Part shown: piece after piece, positions 39,821 through 64,000 of the stretch
Layout of the letters: every line of letters begins with the position of its first letter
Position numbering within the stretch: the stretch's first letter is position 1
Origin: Candidatus Daviesbacteria bacterium
GTDB taxonomy: Bacteria; Patescibacteriota; Microgenomatia; Daviesbacterales; UBA10151
Assembly: GCA_016432425.1 (NCBI GenBank)
Contig: CP066688.1
Location: 446,211 to 510,210, forward strand
DNA: 64,000 nt
Reading direction: 5' to 3'
Made by a program: the position numbers and the translations under genes
Notes under the pieces: generated by a model
The model's database searches: none
Told to the model about the DNA's origin: nothing
What the model saw: only the letters and a program-made list of their open reading frames with translations

Positions 39821-39927
39821 TTGACAAAGTTTTTGTCAATTCCAATAAAATGGATAACTTCTTTAGGATTTGAGAGTTTGCTCTTCGACGAAGTCGAAGC
39901 AAAATCGAAAAAATTCGAAGAATTTTT

Positions 39928-39968
<41 letters not shown>

Positions 39969-40815
39969 TTTAAATATGCAAGTCAAAGGGATCGCAAGAT
40001 AACTGGCGGACGGGTGAGTAATGTATAGGAATCTACCTTGAAGTGGGACATAGCTTCTCGAAAGAGGAGGTAATTTCCCATGTGAACGCAAGTTCAAAGT
40101 CGTAAGACGCTTTAAGATGAGCCTATATTCTATCAGCTTGTTGGTGGGGTAATGGCCTACCAAGGCGACGACGGATAGCTGGTCTGAGAGGATGGTCAGC
40201 CACAATGGCACTGAGATACGGGCCATACACCTACGGGTGGCGCAGTTGGGAATTGTTGACAATGGGCGAAAGCCTGATCACGCGACGCCGCGTGGAGGAT
40301 TGAAGGCCTTCGGGTTGTAAACTCCTTTTATGTGGGAAGATTATGACGGTACCACACGAATAAGCACCTGCTAACTACGTGCCAGAAGCCTCGGTAATAC
40401 GTAGGGTGCAAGCGTTATCCGGATTCATTGGGCGTAAAGAGTTGCGTAGGCGGCTCGGCGCATTCTGCTTGAAAGCCTCTGGCTCAACCAGAGATTTGGG
40501 CAGAAGATGGCCGAACTAGATGGTTTGGGAGGGTGCTGGAACCTGTAGTGTAGCAGTGAAATGCGTTGATATTACAGGGAACACCAAAGGCGTAGGCAGG
40601 CACCTAACAAACCCATGACGCTGAGGCACGACAGCTAGGGGAGCGAAGCAGATTAGAGACCTGCGTAGTCCTAGCCGTAAACGATGTCCGCTAGTTACCC
40701 CGCCTTTGGCGGGGCGACGACGCTAACGGAAAAACCTCACCAGGGTTTGACATGCAGATGCTAAGCCTATGAAAGTAGGCCTCCTTCGAGGGTTCTGCAC
40801 AGATGCTGCATGGCT

Positions 40816-41633
40816 AATCCCGATTGAATCGGGATGATGGCCGCTCCTTAAGTAATTAAGGAGAAAAATAACCAACCCAAAACGGTGAAGCCCTACTTTT
40901 GGCGTAAGCCAACAAGCAAGATTTCTTACTTGATTTTCGTATTACTTTCGGGTAATGTGAAATTAAGGGGTAATACCGTGGGAAGCTGGTTAGTGTGAGG
41001 TTAGATGTTTGAGGTCGGAAGATGGATAAAGAGATTGGAAGTTTGAAATTGGTAGGATACAATCAAAGTAATGTGATCCAAAGTTTTAAAGATCTAAAAG
41101 TATATCAGGAATCTTATGAATTGGCTTTAATAATTAACAGAGCAATTTTGAGATTGCCTAATAGCGAGAGATTTGATTTGGTAGATCAGATGCGAAGAGC
41201 GTCAAAATCTATTCCAGCAAATATTGCTGAAGGATATGCTAAAAGATTGTCTGAGAAAGAATTTAAAAGATATCTTTTATCAGCAATTGGATCGTGTAAT
41301 GAAATGGTTGTACATATCAGTTTTGCAAAAGATTTAGGTTTTTGGAAATCTGAATTTTGTGAGGATTTACTTAAACGATATGATATCGTAGGTAAACAAC
41401 TTACAAGATTGTTGCAAAATTGGAAAGCCTATCCAACTTCTAAAGTCTAATTTCACAATCTACCTTCTAATTTCTAACATCTAACTTCTATCTAACATAG
41501 CCCCGTAGAGACTGATTCCGCCAGCTGGCGGATGAGAATAGCCAAATGAGGTTATTCAGACGGTTGGCTCCCTACCTTAAATAAAGGGGGAGAAGGTATA
41601 GTCCATGCTCCTAGTAATAGGCAGATTTACATG
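40816..41633 (+). mobile_element. Group-I-like intron in the 16S rRNA between GCATGGCT and GTCGTCAGCTCG
   Basis: Exon sequence GCTGCATGGCT|GTCGTCAGCTCG is restored exactly when 40816-41633 is removed. The 5' exon ends in U and the insert ends in G. The 3' part shares blocks with 23S intron 3 (ccccgtagagact, gtatagtccatgc, ttacatg). Confidence 0.65.
41022..41450 (+). CDS. Four-helix-bundle protein of the 23S-rRNA-intervening-sequence family
   Basis: DLKVYQESYELALIINRAI...FDLVDQMRRASKSIPANIAEGYAKRLSEKEFKRYLLSAIGSCNEMVVHISFAKDLGF matches the IVS four-helix-bundle family pattern; encoded inside the 16S intron. Confidence 0.75.
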   Translation: MDKEIGSLKLVGYNQSNVIQSFKDLKVYQESYELALIINRAILRLPNSERFDLVDQMRRASKSIPANIAEGYAKRLSEKEFKRYLLSAIGSCNEMVVHISFAKDLGFWKSEFCEDLLKRYDIVGKQLTRLLQNWKAYPTSKV

Positions 41634-42238
41634 GTCGTCAGCTCGAGGCGTGAGCTGTACCCTTAAGTGGGACATCGAGCGCAACCCGCACCGTATGTTA
41701 AATAATCCATACGGAACAGCCCCAGTTTTTACTGGGAAGGAAGGTGCGGATGACGTCAAGTCAGCACGGTTCTTACACCCTGGGCTACACACACCCTACA
41801 ATGGCGAAGAACAACGAGTTGCAAGCTGGTAACAGCAAGCTAATCTCTGAAATTTCGCCTCAGTTCAGATCGAGGGCTGCAATCCGCCCTCGTGAAGTCG
41901 GAATTGCTAGTAATCGCGGATCAGCAGGCCGCGGTGAATACGTTCTCGGGTCTTGTACACACCGCCCGTCAAGCGAGCAAAGTTGGGGGCGCCCGAATGC
42001 CTATGTATGTAGGCAGAAGGTGAAACCAGCGATGAGCGCTAAGTCGTAACAAGGTATCCCTAGCCGAAGCTGGGGATGGATCACCTCCTTTCTGGAGATT
42101 AGGTCAAACTAATGATTACTTAAATAATGTATCGTTATGGTATGTCATAGTTCGCAGTAGTTTGATCCATTGATCACGTATGTTCACGCATATGATGATA
42201 GAGAGTTTGAATATTCTCTCTTTAAAGAAAAATATTCC

Positions 42239-42374: not shown

Positions 42375-42740
42375 TTATACTCGTAAATTTCTAATTTCAG
42401 TAGAAGAGGAGAGCTGGTAAATTTTCTCTCCCAGTTTGTAATCAAAAACAAATCTCGGTAGAATTTTTACTTTTATTCCAGCTTTTAAAAAATCTTTTCG
42501 GTGATTTTTATCCATTGGATCAGCTCGATACCAAGTATTAGTATTAGAATCTTTTAATTTCAACTGTTTTTTAAAATATTTTACCCAATTTTCTGGGGAA
42601 TTTTGATCTATTAATGGAAGTATTTGATATGGTTTAGTAGTGGTTTTTAATTCCTCCTGAAGCTTCTGGACTCTTACTTGATAAGTAGACAGACTTGGAT
42701 CCTGAGTAGAACCAATACCAATAATAATTCCTATTGTCAT
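42375..42740 (-). CDS. Hypothetical protein (possible C-terminal extension or partner of the LAGLIDADG endonuclease)
   Basis: 121-aa ORF whose start overlaps the stop of the upstream LAGLIDADG gene (ATGA); no motif. Confidence 0.3.
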   Translation of the reverse strand: MTIGIIIGIGSTQDPSLSTYQVRVQKLQEELKTTTKPYQILPLIDQNSPENWVKYFKKQLKLKDSNTNTWYRADPMDKNHRKDFLKAGIKVKILPRFVFDYKLGEKIYQLSSSTEIRNLRV

Positions 42741-43399
42741 TCGAGAAATTTAGCCTTTCTTTCAAGATATAATTTGCAATTAGGGTAGTATATAAAATTC
42801 AAAAGTTTCTTAGTATCTTTCTTTGCATATTCTAACTTCCATTGGTTGCCATTACCATAAGAACATATTTTCCTTGGGAAAAGTTCTAACTCTTTGGTTA
42901 ATAAATCTCTCAATGAATTCAAAAACAATGGACTTCCGGAGGTAAAATTACATCTAAGATCAGTTTGTTTGCGATGATCTTTAGTTCTTAAATAAGTTGT
43001 AAAAAATACACTTCCATCGCCATCAAAATAGCCCCTAATAAAATCAGCTAGAAATTCTTTTTGGATTTTAGGTAACCTAATTACTAGACTTTTTTTTCGG
43101 AGGCCACCTAATAAAAGTAAATCTTTGTATAAAATTTTAGAATGTACGATTAGGGTAGAAGATTTTTCAAGCTTTCCTTTTCTGCGATAACGGAAAATAG
43201 GGGAATTAGAATTCAGAACCCCTTTTACTTGCTGTAGGATTGATTCATCTAGCGAAGAGAAAGTAATTCTATAAGATCGCTCGTGTCTCATATATCCATC
43301 AGCTAACCAGTATCCAAAAACATAGGCCATATCTGGGGACCATTTTGAGAAGAAATTTTCGTTCAAGGTGTATTTTCTAGAGTGGTATTTAAGAAGCAT
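42737..43399 (-). CDS. Free-standing double-motif LAGLIDADG homing endonuclease
   Basis: Two LAGLIDADG motifs, YVFGYWLADGY and FIRGYFDGDGSV, in a 220-aa ORF between the 16S and tRNA-Cys. Confidence 0.8.
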   Translation of the reverse strand: MLLKYHSRKYTLNENFFSKWSPDMAYVFGYWLADGYMRHERSYRITFSSLDESILQQVKGVLNSNSPIFRYRRKGKLEKSSTLIVHSKILYKDLLLLGGLRKKSLVIRLPKIQKEFLADFIRGYFDGDGSVFFTTYLRTKDHRKQTDLRCNFTSGSPLFLNSLRDLLTKELELFPRKICSYGNGNQWKLEYAKKDTKKLLNFIYYPNCKLYLERKAKFLE

Positions 43400-49702: not shown

Positions 49703-50205
49703 TGAGCGTAAATTGAATGTACAACATTAATGCATACGGTGGATGCCTTGGTCGAAAGTACCGATGAAGGACGCACTTGACCGCGATAGTCTGCGAGGAG
49801 CTGCCAAGAAGCTTTGATCCGCAGGTTTCCGAATGGGATAACCCCTCCTTTTTTGGGGGATCCTGTCATGAATACATAGTGGCAGGAAGGGCACGCACTG
49901 AACTGAAACATCTAAGTAAGTGCAGGAAAAGAAATCAACAGAGATTCCCCAAGTAGCGGCGAGCGAAACGGGAACAGCCTAAAGTTATTTGCGCTTCGCG
50001 CAAGTGAAGACAAATAACGGGTAGTGGGGTCTGTAATATGGTATCAGATGAGGATAGCTGAAATGTCTGGAAAGATATGCCAAAGAACATGATAGCTGTG
50101 TAAGCAAAATTCAAATCTGGCCTAACGGATACCCGAGTAACTCAGGACACGTGTAATCCTGGGCGAATCTGTGGCGACCATGCCATAAGGCTAAATATAC
50201 TTTCG

Positions 50206-50245
<40 letters not shown>

Positions 50246-50841
50246 AAGGGCGAGATGCCCTGTGAAATAGTACCTGAAACCGTATGCTGACAAGCAGTGG
50301 GAGCTGGAGGCTAGATGTTGGACGTTAGAAGCTGGAAAATATCTAGCATCTAATTTCTAACTTCTAGCTTCTAGTAACCGCGTGCCTATTGAAGAATGAA
50401 CCGGTGAGTTATCGTTATTTTCAAGTCTAAGCAAGTTTACTTGTGCAGGCGCAGTGAAAGCGAGGGTTAATAGCCCGCATGCCCTGAGTTTATCGAAGGG
50501 TAAGAAGATGACGTTAGACCCGAAACCGAGTGAGCTAACCATGTCCAGGGTGAACCCGCCTTAATCGGCGTGGGGAGGCCCGAACCCGTATCTGGATCAA
50601 AAGGTTGGGATGAGGTGTGGTTAGGGGTGATATGCCTAACGAACTCGGAGATATAGGGGTAGAGCACTGGATGGTCTTTCCGCCGCAAGGCGGGAGATCA
50701 ACCAAACTCCGAATACTACTGCGATTATCTTGAGGAGTCAGTCCGATCCGGCTAAGCGGAGCGGGCCTAAGGGAAACATCCCAGATCAATAGCTAAGGTC
50801 CCTAAAACAGGTTAAGTGTTAAAGGTAGTCTTGATCCTTAT

Positions 50842-50898
<57 letters not shown>

Positions 50899-51776
50899 TG
50901 GTCTACTACGGATTGGGGCGCCGACAATGTATCGGGGCTCAAACCTGTTACCGAAGCTTTGGGGGTGCACCATATGGTGCACCCGGTAGAGGAGCGTCCG
51001 CCAAACAGTGAAGGTGAGTTGTAAGACTTGCTGGAGATTGGCGGAGTGAGAATGCCGGTATGAGTAGCGTATTGATGTGAAAAACATCATCGCCGTAAGC
51101 CCAAGGTTTTCCACGCAACGTTAATCGGCGTGGAGTTAGTCGATCCTAAGGTCAGGCCAAATGGCGTAGCCGATGGACAACAGGTTAAAATTCCTGTACT
51201 TTTGTTTTCTGTCAAAGACTTCAAGGGTTGACGGAGTGGGAAAATTTTCTACCCTGAGTGAGGAGCGTCAGCTCCGAATCGAAGGGTCTAAGCAACAAGT
51301 TAGTGGAGGCAGGCAAATCTACCTCCATGTGTCATCAGTTTCTCTTGAGCAATCGAGCGAGCTGGTGGCTTTAAAAAATACGAGTTGTTATGGCGTAAGA
51401 GAAGATTTTTCTGTTTCCAAGAAAAGACTCGTGAAGGAGAAAATGAAATTCGTACCAAAACCGACACAGGTGGGTAGATTGAGTATATTAAGGCGATCGG
51501 GAGAACTATCCTTAAGGAACTCGGCAAAATAGCTGGACGTAACTTATTGGAGATGTCCTGTCTTTCATCGCAAGATGGAGGACCTCAGTTAATGACGCTA
51601 AGCGACTGTTTATCAAAAACACAGCTCCCTGCTAAATCGAAAGATGATGTATAGGGGGTGACACCTGCCCAGTGCCAGTAATTTAACACTTCAGTTGATC
51701 CCTTTCCGCAAGGTCAGGAGGAGGTTGGGGTCTAAGATCTGGTGAACGGCAGCAGTAACTATAACTGTTCTATGGT

Positions 51777-52533
51777 GAGATTCGTTGCCTTAGAAGTAAA
51801 AATCCGTGAAAGCGGATGGTGTGTTTTTGAAATTCTGCTATATGCTGGAAACTCTGTAGTATCCTAAGCTAGTTATTGATTTTTGGTAAAATTTCGGGTA
51901 ATACTGAAATAATGTCTAATTTGATAACTAATAATGTTCTAGGTGCAGACAATCAGCAGGAAAGACTAGTGGAAATTGGTTGGATAGTTGGTTTTGTAGA
52001 TGGAGAAGGTTGCTTTTCAACTGGAATTGTTCAACAAAATGATCGTCCCGGAAGAAAAGGATACAAACTTCGTTATCAAGTATTCTATGAATTTGCAGTA
52101 ACTCAAGGAGCAAAAAGTATTGATTCTCTTGAGAAAATACACAAATACTTTGGAGTAGGTAGCGTAGTAATTAATAGACGATATGATAATCATAAAGAGC
52201 ATTTATATCGTTATATTGTTAGAAAGAAGGAAGATTTGTTGAATGTAATAATTCCTTTCTTCCAAAAGTATCATTTGCAATCTTCTAAGCAAAAAGATTT
52301 CGAAAAGTTTGTCCAAATTGTTAGTCTAGTTGATCAAAAAAGGCATCTAGAAGCGGATGGATTAATCGAAATATTAAAAATTGCTGAAACCATGAACCGA
52401 CAAAAATCCCGCCAAGATCTAATTAGAATCCTCAGAGACTAATACGCAGAAGTCCAATGAAAATTGGACAAGATAGAGTCCGAACTTTATGGCGACATAA
52501 AGAGTCTAGGTTTATCCTAGGAATAACATTTTT
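51777..52533 (+). mobile_element. 23S group I intron 1 (insertion near E. coli ~1923, GGT|AGCGAAATTCC)
   Basis: Exon 1 ends ...ataactgttctatggt and exon 2 resumes aagcgaaattccttgtc; the ~757-nt insert contains a LAGLIDADG ORF. Boundary uncertain by 2-3 nt. Confidence 0.6.
51876..52442 (+). CDS. LAGLIDADG homing endonuclease (intron-encoded)
   Basis: IVGFVDGEGCF LAGLIDADG motif; 188 aa inside intron 1. Confidence 0.8.
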   Translation: MIFGKISGNTEIMSNLITNNVLGADNQQERLVEIGWIVGFVDGEGCFSTGIVQQNDRPGRKGYKLRYQVFYEFAVTQGAKSIDSLEKIHKYFGVGSVVINRRYDNHKEHLYRYIVRKKEDLLNVIIPFFQKYHLQSSKQKDFEKFVQIVSLVDQKRHLEADGLIEILKIAETMNRQKSRQDLIRILRD

Positions 52534-52654
52534 AAGCGAAATTCCTTGTCTGGTGAGTTCAGACCCGCACGAAAGGTAGAACGACTTAGCGACTGTCTTG
52601 AGGATAGACCCGGCGAAATTGCAATGGCTGTGAAGATGCGGCCTTCCCATACTT

Positions 52655-52690
<36 letters not shown>

Positions 52691-53042
52691 ACTCTGATTT
52701 AAAAGTTAAATTGTGTAGCGTAGGAGGGATCCTGAGAGCAATCGAAGGAAACAATGAAACACCTCTCTTTTTAAGTTTTAAGTCTCACCATGGGCCCTAG
52801 AAAAACGGGCCATGGGACCAAGTCTGGCGGGCAGTTTTACTGGGGCGGTACCCTCCAAAAAAGTAACGGAGGGGTACAAAGGTACACTTGTCTCGAATGG
52901 AAACCGAGACTGAAGCGTAAAGGTATACAGTGTGCTTGACTGCGAGAGGTACATCTCGAGCAGGGACGAAAGTCGGTCTTAATGATCCTCACGTAGCTTA
53001 TGGGAGCGCGTGGGCTTAACGGATAAAAGCTACCCCGGGGAT

Positions 53043-53924
53043 ACAAATGTGTCCTGTCCCGATATATAATGAAATCGGGACGATAATGTGGCTAATAACG
53101 GTGAAACCTATCAATTGGTGGTTTGGTCTTACCAAATGCATCGAGACAATTAGTAGGCAATACCGTGGGAAGTCGAAGGTATGGACAAGATACAAAAGGC
53201 AATAGTTATTGGAACTATTTTAGGAGACGGTTTTTTGCAAAAAACTGGCAAAAATAATGCTCGTTTAAGGCTAGAACATAGTTTAAAACAGCAGGATTAT
53301 CTTCTCTGGAAGTGTCAAATTTTAAATAATTTCTTTCAGAAAAAGCCAAAGATTTTAACAAGAACCAATCTGAAATTTGGTAAAAGTTACCAATATATCA
53401 GAAACCAATCCTATTCTGGTTTGGAGTTTGGAAAACTACATCAACTTTTTTATGTTGATGGTAAAAGGGTTGTCCCAAATGAGATATCCAAACTTCTCAA
53501 AAATCCAATGAGTTTGGCTGTTTGGTTTATGGATGATGGGTATTACTACTTTAGAGATAAAATAGCTTATATCTATTTACCTGAACTAGACTCGGATTCA
53601 ATAAATAACTTATTAATTGCTTTGCGAATGAATTATGGTTTATCTCCTCAACTAAAAATTAAAAAAAGAGGGGAATATGTTTTAAACTTTAGCGTAAAAG
53701 ATACAGCAAAGTTAATTCAAATAATTAAACCATATATCATAAAATCTATGTCCTACAAATTACCTTTTGACCCCGTATCGACTGAACCTAGTAGCAAAGA
53801 GTAAATATCATTTATTCTTGGGTGAGATGTGAGGTTAAATCTTGCATCATATGCCGCACTCCAGCACCAAATTGGTGTTGGATGAAGATATAGTCAGTAC
53901 TAACAGTGATGTTAGATTTTTATG
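53043..53924 (+). mobile_element. 23S group I intron 2 (insertion in CCCCGGGGAT|AACAGGCT, E. coli ~2449)
   Basis: Removing 53043-53924 restores CCCCGGGGATAACAGGCT exactly. The upstream exon ends in U and the insert ends in G. Confidence 0.7.
53181..53804 (+). CDS. Double-motif LAGLIDADG homing endonuclease (intron-encoded)
   Basis: Motifs IIGTILGDGFLQ and VWFMDDGYYY; 207 aa inside intron 2. Confidence 0.8.
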   Translation: MDKIQKAIVIGTILGDGFLQKTGKNNARLRLEHSLKQQDYLLWKCQILNNFFQKKPKILTRTNLKFGKSYQYIRNQSYSGLEFGKLHQLFYVDGKRVVPNEISKLLKNPMSLAVWFMDDGYYYFRDKIAYIYLPELDSDSINNLLIALRMNYGLSPQLKIKKRGEYVLNFSVKDTAKLIQIIKPYIIKSMSYKLPFDPVSTEPSSKE

Positions 53925-54068: not shown

Positions 54069-54792
54069 TTAGTAGTTGAGAATTTTTCGACTATTGAACA
54101 GTTTGAACCCGAGGTTTAAGACATCAAAATTACGGCGGCGCAGTACAGCAATGTATTGTGTAAAGCTGATTCATATCGGTGAAATCCTGATGTAAGGTTG
54201 CATAGCAACCTGTCATATGTTAGGATAATACCGAGGGAAATTGTCCATGGTTAAATTACTTTCTGAAGTTAAAAAAGCTTACATAGCAGGTTTTTTGGAT
54301 GGAGATGGAAGTATTTATGTTAGAGCAAAACCTAACTCTGATTACAGATTTGGTTTTCAAATTGCTCCCTACATAATTTTATTTCAATCTTCCAAAGAAA
54401 AAGAGAAATTTACAGAGCTTTGTAAGTTAATTGGTTTTGGGTATATGAGAGAAAGAAAAGATGGAGTTTTAGAATATACTATCAATAAGATAGCAGATAT
54501 TCGAGAATTCTTGAAAGCAATATATCCATTTTCTATTTTAAAGAAAAGACAGATAGAATTAATGTTAAAAATTCTGGATGCCAAGGAAAAAATAGAATCA
54601 GAGAGTGATTTTCAAGCTCTTTTAGAATTAGTTGATTCGTATAGAAGCTTAAATTATTCTAAAAAGAGAATTAACCGTGTATTAACCCCGTAGAGACTAC
54701 AAATCAGCCATCCTGAGCGAAGTCGAAGGATGAAAGTATAGTCCATGCCTTTAGAATAAGCAGAGCTTTTCTGCGAATAGAGGAATTACATG
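54069..54792 (+). mobile_element. 23S group I intron 3 (insertion in GGGTTCAAACCGT|CGTAAGACAGG, E. coli ~2593)
   Basis: Exon junction matches the conserved GGGTTTAGAACGTCGTGAGACAG block. The insert ends ttacatg (terminal G) and shares 3' blocks with the 16S intron. Confidence 0.7.
54241..54693 (+). CDS. LAGLIDADG homing endonuclease (intron-encoded)
   Basis: IAGFLDGDGSIYV LAGLIDADG motif; 150 aa inside intron 3. Confidence 0.8.
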   Translation: MSMVKLLSEVKKAYIAGFLDGDGSIYVRAKPNSDYRFGFQIAPYIILFQSSKEKEKFTELCKLIGFGYMRERKDGVLEYTINKIADIREFLKAIYPFSILKKRQIELMLKILDAKEKIESESDFQALLELVDSYRSLNYSKKRINRVLTP

Positions 54793-55261: not shown

Positions 55262-55378
55262 AGCCTCGGTGGTTGGAGCGGTAAGGTTCCACCTGATTCC
55301 ATCCCGAACTCAGTAGTGAAACTTACCAGCGGGGACGATAATGCATCCGCAAGGTTGCGTGAAAATACCTCACTGCCG
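55262..55378 (+). rRNA. 5S ribosomal RNA (3' half divergent)
   Basis: ccacctgattccatcccgaactcagtagtgaaac matches the universally conserved 5S helix II/III-loop C region. I could not pair the termini convincingly, so the ends are approximate. Confidence 0.5.
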
Positions 55379-55405
55379 GATTTTTAGAAAGACAGGTGAA
55401 AATGT

Positions 55406-56549: not shown

Positions 56550-57842
56550 ATGCCAAGGTTAACTTCAGTCTACATTTGCCAGCAATGTGGTTATCAATCT
56601 TCCCAATATCTAGGCCGCTGTCCTAATTGCGATTCCTGGAACTCTTTTGTAGAAGAAGTAGAAGAAGTAGTCAGTAGCAGGCAGCAAGCAGTAAATAAAG
56701 CGGCAGAGATTGTCAATTTGGCGGAGTTTGATGACAAGGGTTATGAACGGATTTCTACCAAAATGGAAGAGTTTGACCGGGTATTGGGGGGAGGAGTAGT
56801 CAAAGGTTCTCTGGTCCTGGTGGCAGGAGAGCCGGGAGTGGGTAAGTCCACCTTATTAACTCATTTAAGCATTAATATTCCTAATACTTTATATGTGGCC
56901 GGAGAGGAATCTCCCAGCCAGATTAAACTCAGGGTGAACAGGATTAACCCCAAGGCTCAACTTTTCATCTTAAATGAAACAGACGTAGATGTTATTATTG
57001 GAGCAATTAAACAATTTCAGCCCGGTTTGGTGATTATTGACTCCATCCAGGTTCTACAAACCACTGATTTATCCTCGGTGGCAGGCTCGGTGGGACAGGT
57101 ACGAGAGTGTGCCTATCGTTTGCAACGCCTGGCTAAAGAAAGCCACATCCCCATTTTCTTGGTCGGCCATGTGACTAAAGAAGGGACAGTGGCCGGTCCC
57201 AAAACCCTGGAACATTTGGTGGATGTGGTTTTAAGCCTGGAAGGGGATCAAACCAGCCAATTTAGGATTTTAAGGGGCAATAAAAACCGTTTTGGACCCA
57301 CAGATGAGGTAGGGATTTTTGAAATGGCTGAGAGAGGTATGGACGAGGTTAAAAATCCTTCTAGGTTATTTTTGGAAAGTAAGCAAAATTCTCCTGGCTC
57401 AGCTGTAACTGCCATTATTACGGGACTCCGCCCACTACTGGTGGAAATTCAGGCCTTGGTAGTTAAAACTTCCTTAAGCTTTGGGCGGCGGGTAGCTTTG
57501 GGGATTGATAATAACCGTCTGCAGCTTTTGGTGGCTGTTTTGCAAAAAAGATTAAATTTACCGCTGTTCCAATATGATATTTTTGTTAATGTGACAGGGG
57601 GACTGCGGATCAATGAGCCGGCTGCTGATTTGGCCATTATTTTAGCTCTAGCATCTTCTTTCAAAGATAAAATCATACCAGCTAAGACTGTTTTTATTGG
57701 AGAAGTCGGGTTACTGGGGGAAATTAGATCAGTCAAAGCCTTGGAAAAAAGGATCACCGAGGCTAAAAAGTTGGGGTATACCCGGGTAATTAGTTCTAAA
57801 AATACCCAAAATATCTCAGAAATTATTAAAAAAATCAGCTAA
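56550..57842 (+). CDS. radA: DNA repair protein RadA/Sms
   Basis: N-terminal C4 zinc finger (CQQCGYQSSQYLGRCPNCDSW), Walker A GEPGVGKST, KNRFG motif and a Lon-protease-like C-terminal domain. Confidence 0.9.
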   Translation: MPRLTSVYICQQCGYQSSQYLGRCPNCDSWNSFVEEVEEVVSSRQQAVNKAAEIVNLAEFDDKGYERISTKMEEFDRVLGGGVVKGSLVLVAGEPGVGKSTLLTHLSINIPNTLYVAGEESPSQIKLRVNRINPKAQLFILNETDVDVIIGAIKQFQPGLVIIDSIQVLQTTDLSSVAGSVGQVRECAYRLQRLAKESHIPIFLVGHVTKEGTVAGPKTLEHLVDVVLSLEGDQTSQFRILRGNKNRFGPTDEVGIFEMAERGMDEVKNPSRLFLESKQNSPGSAVTAIITGLRPLLVEIQALVVKTSLSFGRRVALGIDNNRLQLLVAVLQKRLNLPLFQYDIFVNVTGGLRINEPAADLAIILALASSFKDKIIPAKTVFIGEVGLLGEIRSVKALEKRITEAKKLGYTRVISSKNTQNISEIIKKIS

Positions 57843-57915: not shown

Positions 57916-58920
57916 TTGTCATCCGGTAATTTCTATGTCAGAATAATGACGGCAAGAATTTTTTTATTCGATAACTTTCTTGTCAAAGGAAATTATTTCG
58001 TGTCAATCAAGTTAATTTTACGCCTGGTTTTGGCTGTGGTGTTTGCCACACTGGCCATTATATATTCTGAGCTCCTGCCGCCCATTGAGGGGGCCAATGC
58101 CTTTCTGTTGCGGGCTGCTATTACTATTTTGTTAGGAGTAATTGGTTTTGCTATTTTCCCGGAGCTGGCTACCAGAGTGACTACTGCCACTATTCATCTT
58201 TTTAATTTAACTATTACCCGGATTTCCACGGAGATTTTAAACCAGATTTTGCGGGTGTCCCGCCAAACCCATGTGAGCCAACCCTCAGTTTTGCCAACTC
58301 GGGGCAGTAATATAAGTAACCCTTTAATCATAGATACCTCAGCCATTATTGACGGGCGGGTACTGGATATTGCCAAAACCGGATTTATCAATGGTTTGGT
58401 ACTAGTCCCTAATTTTGTCTTATTGGAGCTACAACAGGTGGCTGATTCCAAAAGTAGCGAGAAAAGAGCCCGGGGCAGGCGGGGTTTCGAAATAATGGAG
58501 GAGCTAAAGCGGGTCAGTGACTCGTCTGGGGCTAAAATGAAGGTAGAGGTTTGGGATAAAGAGATTAAAGGTAAAGATGTGGATGAAAAATTAGTGAACC
58601 TGACGAAGGCTTTAAATGGGAAAATTCTTACTACTGACTTTAATTTAAACCGTCTGGCCGGGGCCCACAGTGTTTTGGTATTAAATATTAATGATTTGGC
58701 TAATGCCTTAAAAACCATTGCCATCCCCGGAGAAAGACTAAAGATTAAAATTCTGCATTTGGGTAAAGATGCCCACCAGGGAGTAGGGTATTTAGCTGAT
58801 GGGACCATGATTGTGGTCCAGGATGGGGCAGGGGCAGTGGGGAAAACTATTGAAATAGAAGTGACTAAAATTCTGCAAATTCCCGCCGGCCGGATGATTT
58901 TTGCCCAAAAAAGTTCGTAA
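57916..58920 (+). CDS. YacL-like PIN and TRAM domain membrane protein
   Basis: N-terminal TM helices, a PIN domain (LIIDTSAIIDGRVLDIAKTGFINGLVLVP..LLELQQVADS) and a C-terminal TRAM-like beta domain. It follows radA here, as yacL does in the B. subtilis radA-disA-yacL locus. Confidence 0.7.
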   Translation: MSSGNFYVRIMTARIFLFDNFLVKGNYFVSIKLILRLVLAVVFATLAIIYSELLPPIEGANAFLLRAAITILLGVIGFAIFPELATRVTTATIHLFNLTITRISTEILNQILRVSRQTHVSQPSVLPTRGSNISNPLIIDTSAIIDGRVLDIAKTGFINGLVLVPNFVLLELQQVADSKSSEKRARGRRGFEIMEELKRVSDSSGAKMKVEVWDKEIKGKDVDEKLVNLTKALNGKILTTDFNLNRLAGAHSVLVLNINDLANALKTIAIPGERLKIKILHLGKDAHQGVGYLADGTMIVVQDGAGAVGKTIEIEVTKILQIPAGRMIFAQKSS

Positions 58921-58940: not shown

Positions 58941-59912
58941 ATGTCACCGGAAGCTAAAGATGATGGTTTATACCCATCAGGGAATTTCTCCAGGCGGGAT
59001 TTTTTTGACCGCTCTTTTTGGTTACTCTCGATAGCAGGAATTACCCCTAAATATATTGATTATTTATATCAAAAATTTGTTAAGCCCGGAATAGAGAGAA
59101 CTAATCCCGCTGTAATTACAGCCGCACATTCTTTTTGGGAACCAAGATATACCAGGGAATGGGGGCCTATTTTTAAAGGGGGAGTTGAGCAGTTGCAGAA
59201 TCAGGATCCAAACCGGGGGTTAAGTTTATTTGATCAGGTTGCTCAGGCAAAAGGGATGCCGGTTAAGGCTTTAGAAACGGCTTTATACGTAATCAATTAC
59301 GCCATTGAGGAAGGTAATAGACAGTTGAATGCAGGAGAAATTAGTCAGGGGGTGAGAGATTCATACGGATTTTGCTGGGAAGCAGCTGCCTTTAGGGCCC
59401 GTTGGATTTCTCCTGGTTTAGGCAGCAGAGTGTACCAGGCAAATGGTTCCTCGTTTGTTTTGGATGAGGGTACGATGGCTGTGTGGGTCATGGCAGCAGG
59501 CACTAATATTGCCAAAATTAAAGATACTAAAGTAGCTTATGATGCCAACGGTAACAAGCTTTCAGACGCCATTTATCACCGGTTATATGAATGGTTCTTG
59601 AATCCTAATCGCCGGCCTTTTGTGCTTGACCGCCCTAAACCCGGTCAAGAAGGACAGTGGTTTGTGACTTGTTTGGGGGTTACTGAAGACCTCCAATTTG
59701 TCCTGACGGATGATTTTAATAATGGTCCCAACTATTTCCCGGTCAGCCTGGTTAATGCTTATATGGAACCTCAGCCTCTGGCAGCGGGGTTACCCATCCC
59801 TCCTGAACACCAGGAGGGAGTTAATCAATGGTTGGCTAAATGGGATGGGGGTAGAATTCCAGCGGATTTACACTTAGTTTATGATGGTTTATACAATAGC
59901 CAAAGAATTTAG
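58941..59912 (+). CDS. Hypothetical protein
   Basis: 323-aa ORF with no motif. Confidence 0.35.
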   Translation: MSPEAKDDGLYPSGNFSRRDFFDRSFWLLSIAGITPKYIDYLYQKFVKPGIERTNPAVITAAHSFWEPRYTREWGPIFKGGVEQLQNQDPNRGLSLFDQVAQAKGMPVKALETALYVINYAIEEGNRQLNAGEISQGVRDSYGFCWEAAAFRARWISPGLGSRVYQANGSSFVLDEGTMAVWVMAAGTNIAKIKDTKVAYDANGNKLSDAIYHRLYEWFLNPNRRPFVLDRPKPGQEGQWFVTCLGVTEDLQFVLTDDFNNGPNYFPVSLVNAYMEPQPLAAGLPIPPEHQEGVNQWLAKWDGGRIPADLHLVYDGLYNSQRI

Positions 59913-60116
59913 TGACGCAAAGCGTCACTTTTCCACAAAATAATTTTTTCTGTTAATAATAAAAAGTAGGTAGCTAATTTGGGGCTTTGTGACAAGCTAA
60001 AATTGGCTAGATATCCTCTTTGTAAAACTACAGGACTATAGAAATTTTAAGTAAAAAACTCTATGGGTTAGATAAAACTTGACAAATAGTTTTTTTGGTG
60101 CTATGTTAAATCAACT

Positions 60117-60254
60117 ATGATGTTTTTGCAGCGGATGTTCAGCCCTAAAAAGGCCAGACAGTTGAAAAATAGGCAGTCAGAAGTAATTGTGGATCAGGTG
60201 AAGAAATTATTACAGGAAGCGGATCAAAGTATTATCTTAATGGTCCGTAGATAA
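60117..60254 (+). CDS. Candidate small protein (45 aa) with own promoter and terminator
   Basis: ATG at 60117 to TAA at 60252-60254 encodes MMFLQRMFSPKKARQLKNRQSEVIVDQVKKLLQEADQSIILMVRR. TTGACA-17-TATGTT promoter-like at 60079-60112 and a hairpin+T-run immediately downstream. Below the 60-aa ORF-track cutoff. Confidence 0.25.
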   Translation: MMFLQRMFSPKKARQLKNRQSEVIVDQVKKLLQEADQSIILMVRR

Positions 60255-60256
60255 AA

Positions 60257-60300
60257 AGGGTTCCTTGAAGGCAGACGGATCAAGGAGCCTTTTTTATTTG
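60257..60300 (+). terminator. Rho-independent terminator
   Basis: gggttccttga-aggcagacggatc-aaggagcc stem-loop followed by tttttt. Confidence 0.45.
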
Positions 60301-60728
60301 CTTGTACTTTAAAACATTAAAAAAGCATTATTCTCGATTAGAGATGAAGGCTTTTTAGTAAGATTTTGAAAAAAATCCATTAAAAAAGCATTACTACCGC
60401 AGACGGACTCGAATAGCAATGCTTTTTTGATTTAAGTTCGAAAACACAACTTCTAGAGCAGTAAGAAATTATGTTTTCTATAGTTAGAATAGAACAAAAA
60501 TTTAAGGGTTGTCAAGCCCCAATTTTAGGTTCAAATTTAGAAAATTGGATAAATTTTGCCTGCAAAATTAAAGGATTGGAAAAAGTTAAGTTGTGAGCTA
60601 TATTGGGGGTTAGTCTAGGGCAGGGACTAGTCCCCAATATAGAACACAACCACCTCCGTCGGAATGGCAGTAACAGTTCAGTAATAAAAACGTAAAAAAC
60701 ATTGACTTGATAAGGAACCCATAGTAGA

Positions 60729-61415
60729 ATGCAAGTGAACTTCAAGGACATGAGTAACTCATTCAGAGATAAAACAATTAAAATCTGCTTGTTTTTAATA
60801 TCCTTAAGTATATTTTTAAGTGTTTCAGCGACCAATACTTTTGCCCAGCAAAGGCCAGTTCCACCACCCCCAACTCCTCCAGCCCCACCCGCGCCTCCTC
60901 CTCAAGTGCCCCAACCCCCAGCTCAACCTCCTCCTCAGATACCTCCACCGGTAATTAATATACCGGCGCCAATCATTAATCTGCCAGCCCCGGTAATCAA
61001 TATCCCTGCCCCCACAGTGGTTACTCCGCCACCCATGAACCAAAATACCAATGTCAGCAGCAGTAATGCCAACAGTAATGTTAATAATAATACTAATATT
61101 GCCCAGGCCCAGGGTGGGGCAGGGGGGTTTGCCAATGTCAATATATCCGGGGTAGCTCCGGCAGCAGTTCAACCAGTAGTTGTTCAACCGGCACCAGTGG
61201 TGGTGGCCAGACAAGCCGTTCCTGTAGCTCAAGTTTCCGGAGTCAGCTTCATAAAACAATTACCGGCCACTGGTTTGCCGGAAATTGCCTTAGCCAGTTT
61301 AGGTCTCATCCCTTTGGGGTCTATACTAAAAGCATATAAAAGTGGTATAAAAGGTATAAGAGAGAATCATGCTTCCTATATTTGGGAAAAGAGGCAGTTT
61401 AATTATCACAGCTAA
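60729..61415 (+). CDS. Secreted proline-rich repeat protein with C-terminal LPATG sorting-signal-like motif
   Basis: Signal peptide, poly-Pro tract (PPPPTPPAPPAPPPQVPQPPAQPPPQIPPP), VINIPAP/IINLPAP/VINIPAP repeats and an Asn-rich tract. C-terminus is KQLPATG + hydrophobic LPEIALASLGLIPLG + charged tail. Confidence 0.6.
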   Translation: MQVNFKDMSNSFRDKTIKICLFLISLSIFLSVSATNTFAQQRPVPPPPTPPAPPAPPPQVPQPPAQPPPQIPPPVINIPAPIINLPAPVINIPAPTVVTPPPMNQNTNVSSSNANSNVNNNTNIAQAQGGAGGFANVNISGVAPAAVQPVVVQPAPVVVARQAVPVAQVSGVSFIKQLPATGLPEIALASLGLIPLGSILKAYKSGIKGIRENHASYIWEKRQFNYHS

Positions 61416-62458
61416 TGGAGACTAATATTTTTAAACAATCAGTTTTTTGGCAAAGGTTTGTCAGGTTCTTGTTAATCGGATTGTCAGTTTGGTTGTTAAC
61501 CTTTACCCTGCAGGCTTCTCCCACTACCTTACTAGCTTCCCATGCCTGTGTCTCTGTACCGGCAGCAGTTAACATTTCCACGCCTGTCAATAACCAAACT
61601 TTTCCTGCCAACACTTCCAGCGTGACCGTGATCTGGAACCAGGATGCTAATGTTGATTCCTCTAGAATTAGGATGACTGATAACCATACCAATACTATCA
61701 TTGCCTCCACCACTGTGACTACTAATAGTTTTACTACGCCTGCTTTACAAAATGGCCATTCTTTTACAGTGCTGATTGTTCCGGGTAACAGATGTGGAGA
61801 GGGGGCCGGCAGGCAAGTAAGCTTTACCATCGCCTCTGTCCCGCCAATAGGTCAGCTCAGCTGTTCAATCTCCCAAAGATTGTTAGGTCCCTCCGGCAAT
61901 GGTTTTTTATTTGAGCTGATAGGTAGTTCCGGCTTTCCAAACATCAAAAGCTGGGAGTGGTTTACTGTTAATAATGGGGCAAATCGTTTTAATACCGGCC
62001 AGTTCATCCAGCAACAATTTTTCGCCAATGCCACTGTTAGGTTGGTGGTGACTGATACGGAAAACCGTTCCGGCAGCTGCGAGACTGCAATTGTTTTACC
62101 CACCACTCTTCTTCCACCTCCTCCGCCTCCTGTCCAGTGTTTTACCTTCACCGCTACCGAACAAAGATGTATGGGCAATCAACTCTGCAGCGTTAATATT
62201 ACCCAAAATGTCAATAATATTTGTGGCAACCGGGCTGAAACTGCTCCCTTTAACTGTAGCCCTGCCGCACAATGCGGCTTTGTCCTGGTACCGCCGCCAG
62301 CCATCCCTCCTTTACCTCCTCTTCCTGTGCAACTGGGTAACTTACAACAAACTACGGTGGGTGTAGCCAACGCCAATAGTAACGTTAACTCTAACTTCAA
62401 TTCCAGCTCAGCCAGCGCAGGAGCGGGAGGTTCCACCAGTGTGACTATCACTTGGTAA
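61415..62458 (+). CDS. Secreted protein of the same low-complexity family (no LPATG)
   Basis: N-terminal TM/signal. Ends with ANANSNVNSNFNSSSASAGAGGSTSVTITW, paralleling the N-rich GGAGG segment of the two flanking genes; PPPPPP tracts. Confidence 0.5.
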   Translation: METNIFKQSVFWQRFVRFLLIGLSVWLLTFTLQASPTTLLASHACVSVPAAVNISTPVNNQTFPANTSSVTVIWNQDANVDSSRIRMTDNHTNTIIASTTVTTNSFTTPALQNGHSFTVLIVPGNRCGEGAGRQVSFTIASVPPIGQLSCSISQRLLGPSGNGFLFELIGSSGFPNIKSWEWFTVNNGANRFNTGQFIQQQFFANATVRLVVTDTENRSGSCETAIVLPTTLLPPPPPPVQCFTFTATEQRCMGNQLCSVNITQNVNNICGNRAETAPFNCSPAAQCGFVLVPPPAIPPLPPLPVQLGNLQQTTVGVANANSNVNSNFNSSSASAGAGGSTSVTITW

Positions 62459-62470
62459 GTAAAATCGGGG

Positions 62471-63388
62471 TTGACAAATAATCTATCTTATAGTATGATT
62501 GGAGGTATTAAAATGACAAATATATCAAATTTGTTAAAAATATTTTTCCTTGGAGCCAGCTTCATTTTAATGCTGGTTATTTTCCAATTGAGCCATCCGG
62601 CTTCAGTTTCAGCTCAAACCCAAGTTTGTTCCCCTAACCAATGGGATGTTAACCAATGCGCCAGATGCGCCGCTGACGGCAGCAGAATGGGTGCTTTTGG
62701 CAGCGATTATGGGGATTTAAGCAATAAAGCTGCCTGGTGTTCTTGCGCTGCCAGAAATAATGACACTGGTTCTTTAATGAGAGAAAGTTGTCCTCAAGCC
62801 CCCAGGAATGTAACTACCGGTACTACTGCAGTTAGCTGTGATGATTTAGGCAAAGATTTTGGCTTTTGCCCGGGAGTGAGGACTTATGACCAGTGTACCT
62901 TAAGGTTTGAAGGTAACCAGGCATTTTTTGATTGCAAAGCTTCTCAAAACAGTAATTGTATTGGCACTATCAGATGTCAAGCTAAAGATAAGGTAGCAGC
63001 CCAGCCTGCTCCGGCAGCTGCTGCAGTAGTAAATTGTCCGGCAGGGACAACTGTCGGCCAAAATTCCCAGGGAGTGACTGTATGTGTGGCCAATGCTAAT
63101 GTTAATGCTAATGCCAACACTAATATTGCCCAGGCCCAGGGTGGGGCAGGAGGTTCAGCCAATGTCAGTATCACCGGTGCTGCTCCGGCCCAACCAGCTG
63201 CACTTTTAGCCGCTGCTCCCGCAGTTAAACAATTACCGGCCACTGGTTTGCCGGAAATTGCCTTAGCCAGTTTGGGTCTCATCCCTTTGGGGACAGGGCT
63301 CAAAGGTTTCCGCAGGGGTCTTAAAACACTGCGGTCAAATGACCCCAGCTTTATTTGGGAAGATAGACAATTTAAAGGCCAATCTTGA
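62471..63388 (+). CDS. Secreted Cys-containing protein with C-terminal LPATG sorting-signal-like motif (paralog of 60729-61415)
   Basis: Signal peptide (true start probably Met at 62513); NANVNANANTNIAQAQGGAGGSANVSITGAAP; C-terminus KQLPATGLPEIALASLGLIPLG...IWEDRQF. A 63-nt block near-identical to 61257-61319. Confidence 0.6.
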   Translation: MTNNLSYSMIGGIKMTNISNLLKIFFLGASFILMLVIFQLSHPASVSAQTQVCSPNQWDVNQCARCAADGSRMGAFGSDYGDLSNKAAWCSCAARNNDTGSLMRESCPQAPRNVTTGTTAVSCDDLGKDFGFCPGVRTYDQCTLRFEGNQAFFDCKASQNSNCIGTIRCQAKDKVAAQPAPAAAAVVNCPAGTTVGQNSQGVTVCVANANVNANANTNIAQAQGGAGGSANVSITGAAPAQPAALLAAAPAVKQLPATGLPEIALASLGLIPLGTGLKGFRRGLKTLRSNDPSFIWEDRQFKGQS

Positions 63389-63525
63389 CAATAAATTTAT
63401 AGTATGCAAGAATAGGTTTGTAAGCCTGTTTACTTCGGGACGAATAATTTTAAAATCTAAATTTCCAATTTTAAATCAAATCTAAATGTTTTAAAACTTA
63501 AAATTTAAAATTTAAAATTAATTAT

Positions 63526-64000
63526 TATGCCTCGAGTTACTAAATCCTTTAAACCAAAAAATCAGTCGTCAGAAGAAATAACTGCTGATCAGTTAGTGGG
63601 GGAGCCAACTTCCCCTGTCATTCCGAGCGCCAGCGAGGAATCTCTGACGAATGACAATCACAATTCCTATCGCCCACGCTATGGTAATGGTGGTTATCAA
63701 AATGGAGGCCGGGATTATTCCGACCGTGACCGTGATGTGCCCACGGAAAAAGTGTCCGGTATTTTGGATATCATGCCGGAAGGCCATGGGTTTTTACGCC
63801 CCAAATACGTCCCTTCCAGCAGTGATGTTTATATTTCTGCTTCCCAAATTCGCCGTTTTAACCTCCGCCCGGGTGATTTAGTAGATGGGGCTGCCCGTCC
63901 GCCCAAAGAAAATGAGCGCTATTTTGGACTGTTGCAGGTAGATAAAATCAACGGTCAAGAGGCAGAGAAATTTGTTTCCCAGGACGGATCTCGGATCAAA
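63526..64000 (+). CDS. rho: Transcription termination factor Rho (5' partial, runs off window end)
   Basis: Open frame from ATG 63526 to the window end encodes ...[67 protein letters not shown], the canonical Rho N-terminal RNA-binding region. Missing from the ORF track because there is no stop in the window. Confidence 0.85.

Follow-up and report, generated by a model that had tools for sequence, protein, structure and literature searches.

A putative lineage-specific sorting signal on two predicted surface proteins encoded upstream of rho in Candidatus Daviesbacteria

Two of three adjacent genes in the genome of a Candidatus Daviesbacteria bacterium encode proteins that end in LPATG, a hydrophobic segment and a long charged tail, and the locus raises the question of whether these proteins are anchored to the cell wall by a sortase or whether the motif has another meaning. 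We analysed the genes within a 64-kb stretch of contig CP066688.1 (assembly GCA_016432425.1, positions 446,211 to 510,210), here called the window, which is also the scope of the sortase and motif scans; all positions below count from its first letter. The lineage is placed in the Microgenomates group of the Patescibacteria. A first-pass annotation, made from the letters alone, had described a three-gene family of secreted low-complexity proteins, two of them with an LPXTG-type sorting signal. Our analysis suggests that genes 1 and 3 probably encode sortase-anchored, Sec-exported surface proteins of the wall, with a sorting signal specific to the lineage. The genes and their main parts are as follows.

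60729-61415, plus strand: gene 1, 228 aa from ATG 60729, with an alternative ATG at 60750
60729-60845, plus strand: predicted Sec signal peptide of gene 1, MQVNFKDMSNSFRDKTIKICLFLISLSIFLSVSATNTFA and then QQ, as read from the sequence
61254-61412, plus strand: putative sorting domain of gene 1, KQ-LPATG-LPEIALASLGLIPLG-SILKAYKSGIKGIRENHASYIWEKRQFNYHS
61415-62458, plus strand: gene 2, 347 aa, its start overlapping the stop of gene 1 (TAATG)
62513-63388, plus strand: gene 3, 291 aa; the mechanical open reading frame (ORF) from TTG 62471 has 305 aa
63227-63385, plus strand: putative sorting domain of gene 3, KQ-LPATG-LPEIALASLGLIPLG-TGLKGFRRGLKTLRSNDPSFIWEDRQFKGQS

The C-terminal domain of genes 1 and 3

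Translation bears out that both ORFs end in KQLPATG, a hydrophobic helix and an IWExRQF tail. The C-terminus reads ...IKQLPATGLPEIALASLGLIPLGSILKAYKSGIKGIRENHASYIWEKRQFNYHS in ORF 1 and ...VKQLPATGLPEIALASLGLIPLGTGLKGFRRGLKTLRSNDPSFIWEDRQFKGQS in ORF 3, and LPATG is located 51 residues from the end in both. The hydrophobic segment LPEIALASLGLIPLG directly follows LPATG (Kyte-Doolittle mean 1.65-1.82), and the remaining 31 residues, which contain [YF]IWExRQF, start with a basic K/R-rich cluster (e.g. LKGFRRGLKTLR) and run on to a conserved WEDRQFK helix. The short positive tail that ends a protein with a usual LPXTG signal is therefore not what we see; the tail is long and carries a conserved helix of its own. 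Genes 1 and 3 are the only ones with LPxTG or WExRxF C-termini in the six frames of the window.

We built a profile from five C-termini and searched it against 1.84 billion representative proteins. At E<=1e-3 it recovered motif, helix and tail as one domain in 316 protein clusters (124 of them at E<=1e-10). All matches listed are C-terminal, ending at most a few residues before the end of proteins that are 63-954 aa long. The top hit was the NCBI version of gene 1 (P0010, 114.8 bits), and gene 3 scored 113.6 bits. The LPXTG-type signal with an unusually long tail, as described in the first-pass annotation, thus holds up, and the conservation of the LPXTG region in orthologues argues against a coincidental motif. 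All named sources of domain carriers are Daviesbacteria or Patescibacteria and the loci are syntenic, in agreement with the earlier view of a lineage-specific surface-protein set.

The domain spans about 52 residues and consists of LP[K/A]TG-LP, a short helix containing Pro and Gly, a basic cluster and P-x-[YF][IL]WE[DE]RQFK. Its consensus reads [KE]-LP-[K>A,N,R,S]-TG-LP-x-LAW-x-A-x-AFIP-x-GF-x-LRRF-x-K-x-KK…P-x-YIWEDRQFK. Conservation and codon-position variability were summarised over 43 distinct nucleotide versions (loci) of the domain. The L, P, T and G of the motif and the L and P that follow it are invariant in all 43, as are the Pro and Gly in the middle of the helix; position X is free and can be K, A, N, R, S or Q. 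The W, E, R and F of the tail motif are 81-95% conserved. The variability is 1.52 bits at third codon positions versus 0.84 and 0.57 bits at first and second positions in the LPXTG-helix block, and 1.26 versus 0.80 and 0.54 bits in the tail motif. Since third positions vary about twice as much as first and second ones, the constraint acts on the protein. The length of the tail behind the hydrophobic segment is 22-38 residues with a median of 28.

The structure of the 55-residue domain predicted by AlphaFold2 from 68 sequences had a mean predicted local distance difference test score (pLDDT) of 80.9. It displays helices at residues 10-19 and 21-39, broken at residue 20, which cover the membrane segment and the basic cluster. 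The chain breaks again at the conserved Pro, beyond which [FY]IWEDRQFK lies in a second helix (42-53). The prediction for full-length gene 3, which was based on four sequences, was uninformative (pLDDT 37).

Signal peptides were judged by inspection as a basic n-region, a hydrophobic segment and an AxA-like site. Products of all three genes have an N-terminal hydrophobic segment and an AxA-like site; in gene 1 a basic n-region precedes the hydrophobic segment, which starts at residue 15, and TFA stands before QQ. An N-terminal hydrophobic stretch is also present in 107 of the 119 full-length members of the family. Their passenger domains are unrelated, and about 15 out of 113 match any Pfam family (DUF11, PKD, collagen, CARDB, MG10).

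To place the domain in its genomic context, we used 55 related loci, 46 from metagenomes, five from exact look-ups and four from species-representative genomes, the latter obtained with a 12-sequence alignment as query. The last family member is followed by rho in about 45 of the 55, as in the window, usually at a distance of 100-250 bp and at most about 1.9 kb. In the remaining loci the contig ends before a neighbour is visible, except for one locus, L051, which is the sole one located away from rho. Hence, of the idea that the C-terminal ~50 aa form an autonomous domain recurring across the genome, the autonomous domain stands, but its occurrence is essentially confined to one locus upstream of rho.

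The candidate sortase and the explanations weighed

The first-pass annotation had stated that the window lacks a sortase, and we came to the same result: no ORF contains the T[LIVMF]xTC motif and tblastn with three Daviesbacteria sortases gave no match in the window. A TLLTC match on an 81-aa antisense ORF in the related locus L002 was judged spurious. The candidate enzyme was found in L051, where the gene for a 240-aa DUF11 member, complete with the domain, is directly preceded by one for a 229-aa protein. This 229-aa protein is a sortase according to PF04203 (E 4.5e-21, 75.3 bits), and its His (LFSHSTD), Cys (LTLQTCDPPGT) and Arg (NRLIVRAKL) align with those of the solved sortase 4D70. The search resulted in 1229 homologues; among the best 120 listed, the top ones have about 60% identity, and the name sortase [Candidatus Daviesbacteria bacterium] recurs many times.

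The scores of this enzyme against every class model are 17-45 bits with cut-offs of 140-166: 45 bits against a cut-off of 160 for class C, 41.7 against 165 for class D, 30.9 against 160 for class E and 17.4 against 166 for class F. The sortase of L051 (39.6) only just reaches the generic sortase_fam cut-off of 39.35, and that of L056 (29.2) stays below it. Judged by these scores, the Daviesbacteria sortase is an unclassified clade outside the curated classes A-F. Its usual neighbourhood is argS–metallophosphoesterase–ndk…sortase–PEGA protein–mreB–glycosyltransferases. In L056-L061 (e.g. L056:6001-9038) the sortase is followed by a PEGA-domain membrane protein, mreB and wall-glycopolymer glycosyltransferases of the WecG type, and the order sortase–PEGA–mreB hints at a link between anchoring and the elongation machinery. 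We considered the PEGA protein as a substrate of the neighbouring sortase and rejected it, as it has no LPXTG and its anchor is N-terminal.

The sortase and the domain also occur together in one assembly, MFCP01 (Daviesbacteria RIFCSPHIGHO2_01_FULL_40_11), with the sortase in L056 and a member that precedes rho in L003. The sortase family was reported from more than half of the genomes of the Candidate Phyla Radiation (CPR) and as near-ubiquitous in Microgenomates (Méheust et al. 2019, PMC6744442). A conserved sortase in Daviesbacteria also speaks against a coincidental motif. Regarding the wall itself, peptidoglycan is plausible because a D-Ala-D-Ala ligase (Ddl) is encoded in the window and a LysM/M23 peptidase is encoded downstream of rho in relatives.

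Sortase-mediated anchoring seems to be the best explanation of genes 1 and 3, because LPXTG varies at its third position only, the C-terminus carries a helix and a basic cluster, export signals are present, the passengers are unrelated and a sortase of the lineage is once adjacent to a member. We infer the cleavage, the wall attachment and the roles of the tail and of gene 2 as follows. The last ~52 residues would serve as a lineage-specific cell-wall sorting signal. After export, the short hydrophobic helix with its Pro and Gly and the basic cluster would hold the precursor in the membrane, and a single Daviesbacteria sortase, highly conserved and presumably encoded in another part of the genome, would cleave LP[A/K]T/G after T and link the Thr to peptidoglycan. 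The helix and the conserved tail, with the predicted second short helix on the cytoplasmic side, would be left in the membrane after cleavage. The extra tail would most likely either strengthen the retention of the weak anchor helix until cleavage or serve as a recognition site for another partner. Gene 2, whose translation is coupled to that of gene 1, would encode a secreted or N-terminally anchored FN3/PKD-like partner which is not wall-anchored and probably works together with the anchored proteins. By analogy, the remnant of helix and tail may also have a role of its own after cleavage: in S. gordonii, the C-peptide left by sortase A is sensed by a two-component system (as cited in PMC11326707).

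Several observations weigh against this explanation. The Gram-positive anchor models PF00746 (Gram_pos_anchor) and TIGR01167 (LPXTG_anchor) match none of the three whole proteins, for which Pfam and NCBIfam give no match at all; the six isolated C-termini that we searched have no Pfam or NCBIfam match at E<=10 either, and the Gram-positive anchor model matches 0 of 113 full-length relatives. The hydrophobic helix is short (~15-18 residues) and contains an invariant Pro and Gly, and the tail exceeds that of classical signals three- to fivefold in length. Apart from the missing sortase in the window, the HYW45 sortase, i.e. that of the genome studied here, is not among the 120 listed of the 1229 homologues. 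The sortase adjoins a member in only one of about 55 loci and, having only ~7 cytoplasmic residues, it cannot itself read the tail.

Some of these points would suit an anchor that is never processed, where the helix stays in the membrane permanently, the cytoplasmic tail docks an intracellular partner such as a cytoskeletal or localisation factor, and the LPXTG-like motif has a structural or juxtamembrane role. In conservation the tail equals LPXTG, and it is predicted to be helical, features that discarded sequence would not need; the sortase has no cytoplasmic domain to read it and the curated LPXTG models do not match. However, the exact invariance of L, P, T and G around a free X is the signature of sortase recognition, a short helix with an invariant Pro and Gly would make a poor permanent anchor, and the conserved sortase of the lineage stands once directly next to a member. 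Neither another type of substrate for this sortase nor a genuine LPXTG signal with a classical short tail was seen in ~650 kb of related sequence, a sample fetched via the domain itself and hence biased with respect to other LPXTG types. On this evidence we regard the permanent anchor as unlikely. Still less likely is that the three genes encode the subunits of a sortase-polymerised pilus-like fibre (major pilin, minor pilin and tip or base protein), as might be suspected from three tandem genes of which two carry LPXTG and two, genes 1 and 2, are translationally coupled, and from the extended Pro-rich or collagen-like rod of gene 1. All three proteins lack both the YPK pilin motif and an E-box (ETxAPxG), and gene 1 has a single Lys (K176, beside LPATG) outside the putative signal peptide (K6, K15, K18) and the post-cleavage tail. 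The window has no class C sortase and the sortase of the lineage reaches 45 bits where the class C cut-off is 160; moreover, many relatives have one member only at this position, and gene 2 has no sorting signal.

We also considered that the conservation of the 3′ ends reflects a constraint on DNA, e.g. as a regulatory region of rho, or chance. The sequence coding for the domain usually lies 100-250 bp upstream of rho and a promoter-like site overlaps the stop codon of gene 3, but third codon positions are by far the most variable, which points to selection on amino acids and on which ground we rejected a tail conserved for the regulation of rho. The domain is also found beside the sortase and away from rho in L051, as well as on upstream tandem copies 1-7 kb from rho, and its presence in 316 clusters speaks against chance; the probability left for this explanation is negligible. 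Sortase anchoring could finally be taken one step further, with the domain and the unclassified sortase as a distinct sorting pair, practically a class of sortase and signal of its own, in which the cytoplasmic helix [YF][IL]WE[DE]RQFK is a second functional element. The helix could then be read by a cytoplasmic or membrane partner which times or places the anchoring, given the sortase beside mreB, or it could act as a signalling C-peptide. We put this forward tentatively and, for now, hold it to be rather doubtful.

The slot upstream of rho and the rest of the window

The following features delimit the locus or lie within it; the promoter-like sites are consensus matches only.

56550-57842: radA, upstream of the slot
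57916-58920, plus strand: membrane protein with PIN and TRAM domains, conserved upstream boundary of the slot
60702-60730, plus strand: promoter-like TTGACT-17-TAGAAT, just before or overlapping the start of gene 1
62339-62455, plus strand: stalk motif of gene 2, N-rich and GG-x-S-x-VTI, the sole segment that gene 2 has in common with genes 1 and 3
62471-62499, plus strand: promoter-like TTGACA-17-TATGAT (11 of 12 consensus positions), followed by GGAGG and ATG 62513
63385-63413: promoter-like site overlapping the stop codon of gene 3
63529-64000, plus strand: 5′ part of rho, conserved downstream neighbour of the slot

In relatives with long flanks the order is radA, PIN/TRAM, the family members, rho and the LysM/M23 peptidase, and behind these lies a Wzy_C-like gene that is read from the opposite strand. 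Between one and three tandem members occupy the slot, and its flanks are 55-80% identical between relatives while the passenger domains differ completely. The order radA–PIN/TRAM–X–rho is thus a hypervariable surface-protein slot. The three-gene arrangement of the window, including the overlap of genes 1 and 2, is reproduced whole in the syntenic relative L001. The 1.15-Mb contig behind L020 contains one locus only that matched the search patterns, which suggests a low copy number of the domain per genome.

Some observations on the slot and its relatives stand on their own. Between PIN/TRAM and gene 1 lies a gene for a 323-aa protein (58941-59912) with no Pfam or NCBIfam match and no detectable counterpart at the same position in related loci. 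It is followed by a gap of ~800 bp upstream of gene 1 (59913-60728), in which we identified a 45-codon ORF (60118-60254), then a hairpin and a T-run, and two copies of the sequence CATTAAAAAAGCATTA. L001 (CAZJNI010000008.1) and L004 (CAZFZP010000018.1) are labelled 'uncultured Gammaproteobacteria bacterium', yet they display the synteny of the Daviesbacteria type and tagged proteins, and their Rho and PIN/TRAM proteins are 58-76% identical to those of Daviesbacteria loci; judged by these sequences the label is probably wrong. In L006, a few genes downstream of the slot, a protein of ~2800 aa (L006:18079-21938) has MerR-like, intein-splicing and Peptidase_S74 matches.

The protein of gene 1 consists of the signal peptide, a Pro-rich stalk of PPII/VINIPAP type, an N-rich part with a GGAGG motif, an A/P/V linker and the sorting domain. 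The PPPP tracts and VINIPAP repeats reported before are present in gene 1, and its Pro-rich stretch reads PPPPTPPAPPAPPP…VINIPAPIINLPAPVINIPAP; the Asn-rich segment closes with NIAQAQGGAGGFANVNISG and the linker is made of Ala, Pro, Val and Gln. In L001 the orthologue (7123-7794, 223 aa) combines a signal peptide with collagen-like GPxGPx repeats, and another relative, P0011 (263 aa), matches Pfam Collagen. In GenBank, gene 1 is annotated as QQG43083.1 (HYW45_02650), which comprises only the last 126 aa from MNQNTNV and so lacks the signal peptide and the Pro-rich stalk. The long form is supported by the lengths of the orthologues in L001 and P0011, and ATG 60750 is favoured as the start since the promoter-like site at 60702-60730 overlaps the start at 60729.

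The protein of gene 3 starts with a signal peptide (…SVSA/QT) and a Cys-rich domain (14 Cys) with a CPAGTT…CV loop, downstream of which follow an N-rich part with the motif GGAGGSANVSITG, an Ala/Pro linker and the sorting domain. It was first given as 62471-63388; this ORF exists, but the true start is most likely ATG 62513, judging from the promoter-like site and GGAGG just upstream and from the start used by NCBI, as the 291-aa product is identical to QQG43085.1 (HYW45_02660).

The description of the three genes as one family can be kept in part. They have a C-terminal stalk module in common, but their N-terminal domains are unrelated. The alignment of genes 1 and 3 extends over ~100 C-terminal residues with 50% identity (E 2e-25), and the part that gene 2 shares with them is limited to an N-rich/GG segment of 38 residues (E 0.1). 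Across the family the stalk upstream of LPXTG is loosely common and is built of a CP.G…C loop and low-complexity sequence rich in Asn, Thr, Ser and Gln, with the motifs GGAGGSANV(T/N)I, REVVREV or FGNVGVG and the lead-in V-A-G-V-x-V-K-E.

Gene 2 has a conserved N-terminal hydrophobic segment FWxxF..LL.G.S, FN3/PKD-like regions and 10 Cys. It ends in the N-rich ...AGAGGSTSVTITW, with no LPXTG and no C-terminal hydrophobic helix, and the N-rich GG motif without LPATG noted at the end of the middle gene is thereby confirmed (...NANSNVNSNFNSSSASAGAGGSTSVTITW). Similar proteins are encoded in the slot of L001, L022, L025, L045 and L046, directly after an anchored member in four of the five, and the overlap of the gene 1 stop with the gene 2 start is found in L001 as well. 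Complete members of the gene 2 family end immediately behind the N-rich/…VTI motif, with VTITW in the window and in L001, VTIKP in L025 and ISINI in L045. Because these orthologues stop at the same motif, the absence of the anchor is conserved and not an artefact. The N-terminus of the family (61415-61480 in the window; L001, L022, L025, L045 and L046), FWKKFSK.LL.G.S, is more conserved than ordinary signal peptides, and it could serve as a membrane anchor that is not cleaved or as an export signal of a specialised kind.

Near-identical DNA in genes 1 and 3 had been taken as a sign of recent gene conversion or duplication. The blocks concerned are:

61092-61123, plus strand: second identical block, gene 1 copy, 32 nt encoding TNIAQAQGGAG
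63119-63150, plus strand: second identical block, gene 3 copy, 32 nt identical to 61092-61123
61254-61319, plus strand: gene-conversion tract, gene 1 copy (LPATG and hydrophobic helix), paired with 63227-63292
63227-63292, plus strand: gene-conversion tract, gene 3 copy, differing from 61254-61319 at 1 of 66 nt

The block of 63 nt with one mismatch that was noted before lies inside the longer 66-nt block, which has the same single mismatch, and the identity of the other pair was found over the full 32 nt. We compared the codons used at identical residues with the expectation from the codon usage of the window itself in 400,000 simulations. The same codon is used at 21 of 22 identical residues in the LPATG-helix block, where 7.0 are expected and none of the simulations reached 21, and at 10 of 11 in the N-rich block (4.0 expected, P ~2e-4). 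The tail, with 8 of 14 (6.5 expected, P = 0.26), is not significantly different from the expectation. Since codon identity is far above what codon usage predicts, the likeness of the blocks at the DNA level exceeds the share of the common amino acids, and because the blocks are codon-identical while the tails diverged, short tracts were copied recently between genes 1 and 3. A tail that is no closer than chance directly beside a block with 21 of 22 codons identical fits the earlier suggestion of recent gene conversion. The tail of gene 1 resembles that of P0011 (…YRSGIKGIREDQASYIWEKRQF) and the tail of gene 3 that of P0003 (…FRKGLKALRANDPSFIWEDRQFK), each being like its own orthologue type, and the two tails are anciently diverged. 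In L001 the two paralogues are not homogenised. The LPATG-helix segment was homogenised within this genome by mosaic gene conversion.

Elsewhere in the window, the 16S rRNA gene (39922-42091) measures 2170 nt versus 1533 nt of the model, and its ORF at 41022-41450 belongs to the 23S_rRNA_IVP family (E 2e-29). The 23S rRNA gene (49722-53093) measures 3372 nt versus 2925 and holds a LAGLIDADG_1 ORF (51876-52442). Further LAGLIDADG ORFs are located between the 23S end and the 5S gene (55265-55381), at 53181-53804 and 54241-54693, and a LAGLIDADG_3 ORF lies on the minus strand at 42737-43399. The three rRNA genes are unlinked and are separated by glycolytic genes, tRNAs and the genes for arginase and deoxyhypusine synthase. 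Insertions inside small-subunit rRNA genes have been reported for CPR bacteria, and unlinked rRNA genes with protein-coding insertions are hallmarks of this group. On the minus strand we also identified a type IV pilin-like protein with N_methyl and DUF1554 (18542-20050) and, upstream of its gene, a 1084-aa protein with no Pfam match (20868-24122); the region 18542-24122 has a G+C content of 46-48% compared with ~40% elsewhere.

Relation to known sorting systems and biological meaning

Compared with the classical LPXTG signal (TIGR01167/PF00746), the domain is likewise tripartite and strictly C-terminal, with a free X, a hydrophobic segment and a basic cluster, and the carriers have N-terminal signal peptides and a PF04203 sortase in the lineage with aligned His, Cys and Arg. 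It differs in that the curated models fail, that G is always followed by LP, and that the Daviesbacteria helix is short with an invariant Pro and Gly. Behind the basic cluster there are ~20 further residues which end in the conserved P-x-[YF][IL]WE[DE]RQFK helix, giving a total tail of 22-38 aa versus ~5-10 classically. Classical carriers are scattered, whereas those of Daviesbacteria occupy essentially one locus per genome.

The enzyme shares with the sortase classes A-F (NF033745-NF033748 and related models) the PF04203 fold signature, the N-terminal membrane anchor and the TLxTC active site, but it falls below all class cut-offs and has its own conserved sortase-PEGA-mreB neighbourhood. Its nearest solved relative is 4D70, named 'SORTASE FAMILY PROTEIN' in the PDB, which we take to be a class D sortase of Clostridium perfringens. 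The PEP-CTERM/exosortase, PGF-CTERM/archaeosortase, GlyGly-CTERM/rhombosortase and MYXO-CTERM/myxosortase systems are similar in that secreted proteins of one lineage, otherwise unrelated, all end in a signature motif with a helix and a basic cluster. In our case, however, the signature is LPXTG and not PEP, PGF, GG or Cys, the presumed cognate enzyme is a sortase and not a polytopic membrane protease, and the NCBIfam models of these and other C-terminal sorting domains gave no match to the six C-termini at E<=10. The sensed C-peptide of S. gordonii is a precedent for a remnant of helix and tail that is sensed, and one possible reason for a conserved tail, but the streptococcal tail is short with no conserved motif, and a sensor role would be assigned here by analogy only.

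In kind, genes 1 and 3 encode ordinary LPXTG/sortase surface proteins, and a sortase in Microgenomates was already published. The novelty appears to lie in the domain itself, in which LPKTG-LP is followed by a short kinked helix, a basic cluster and finally a WEDRQFK helix, in the sortase clade outside A-F with which it is paired, and in its restriction to a single hypervariable slot upstream of rho. Our search of the literature on sortases and LPXTG in CPR, Patescibacteria, Microgenomates or Daviesbacteria yielded no description of this signal. A motif, a helix and a few charges, as sorting signals are usually described, leave the conserved long tail unexplained; no new principle is involved unless the tail proves to be a second recognition or signalling element.

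Most bacteria of the CPR/Patescibacteria have not been cultured, and for many of them a life attached to other cells is assumed. To our knowledge, their surface proteins and the ways in which these are displayed are largely unknown. The recognisable C-terminal tag, missed by Pfam and NCBIfam, marks presumed wall-anchored surface proteins of Daviesbacteria, and a profile of the domain would improve their annotation, as in the case of gene 1, which was called as a 126-aa fragment. The slot radA–PIN/TRAM–X–rho is a natural place to seek host-recognition adhesins. If the domain and its sortase did form a distinct sorting pair, this pair would serve a single slot upstream of rho, which would then be the main locus for recognition of the host or the environment in these ultra-small bacteria.

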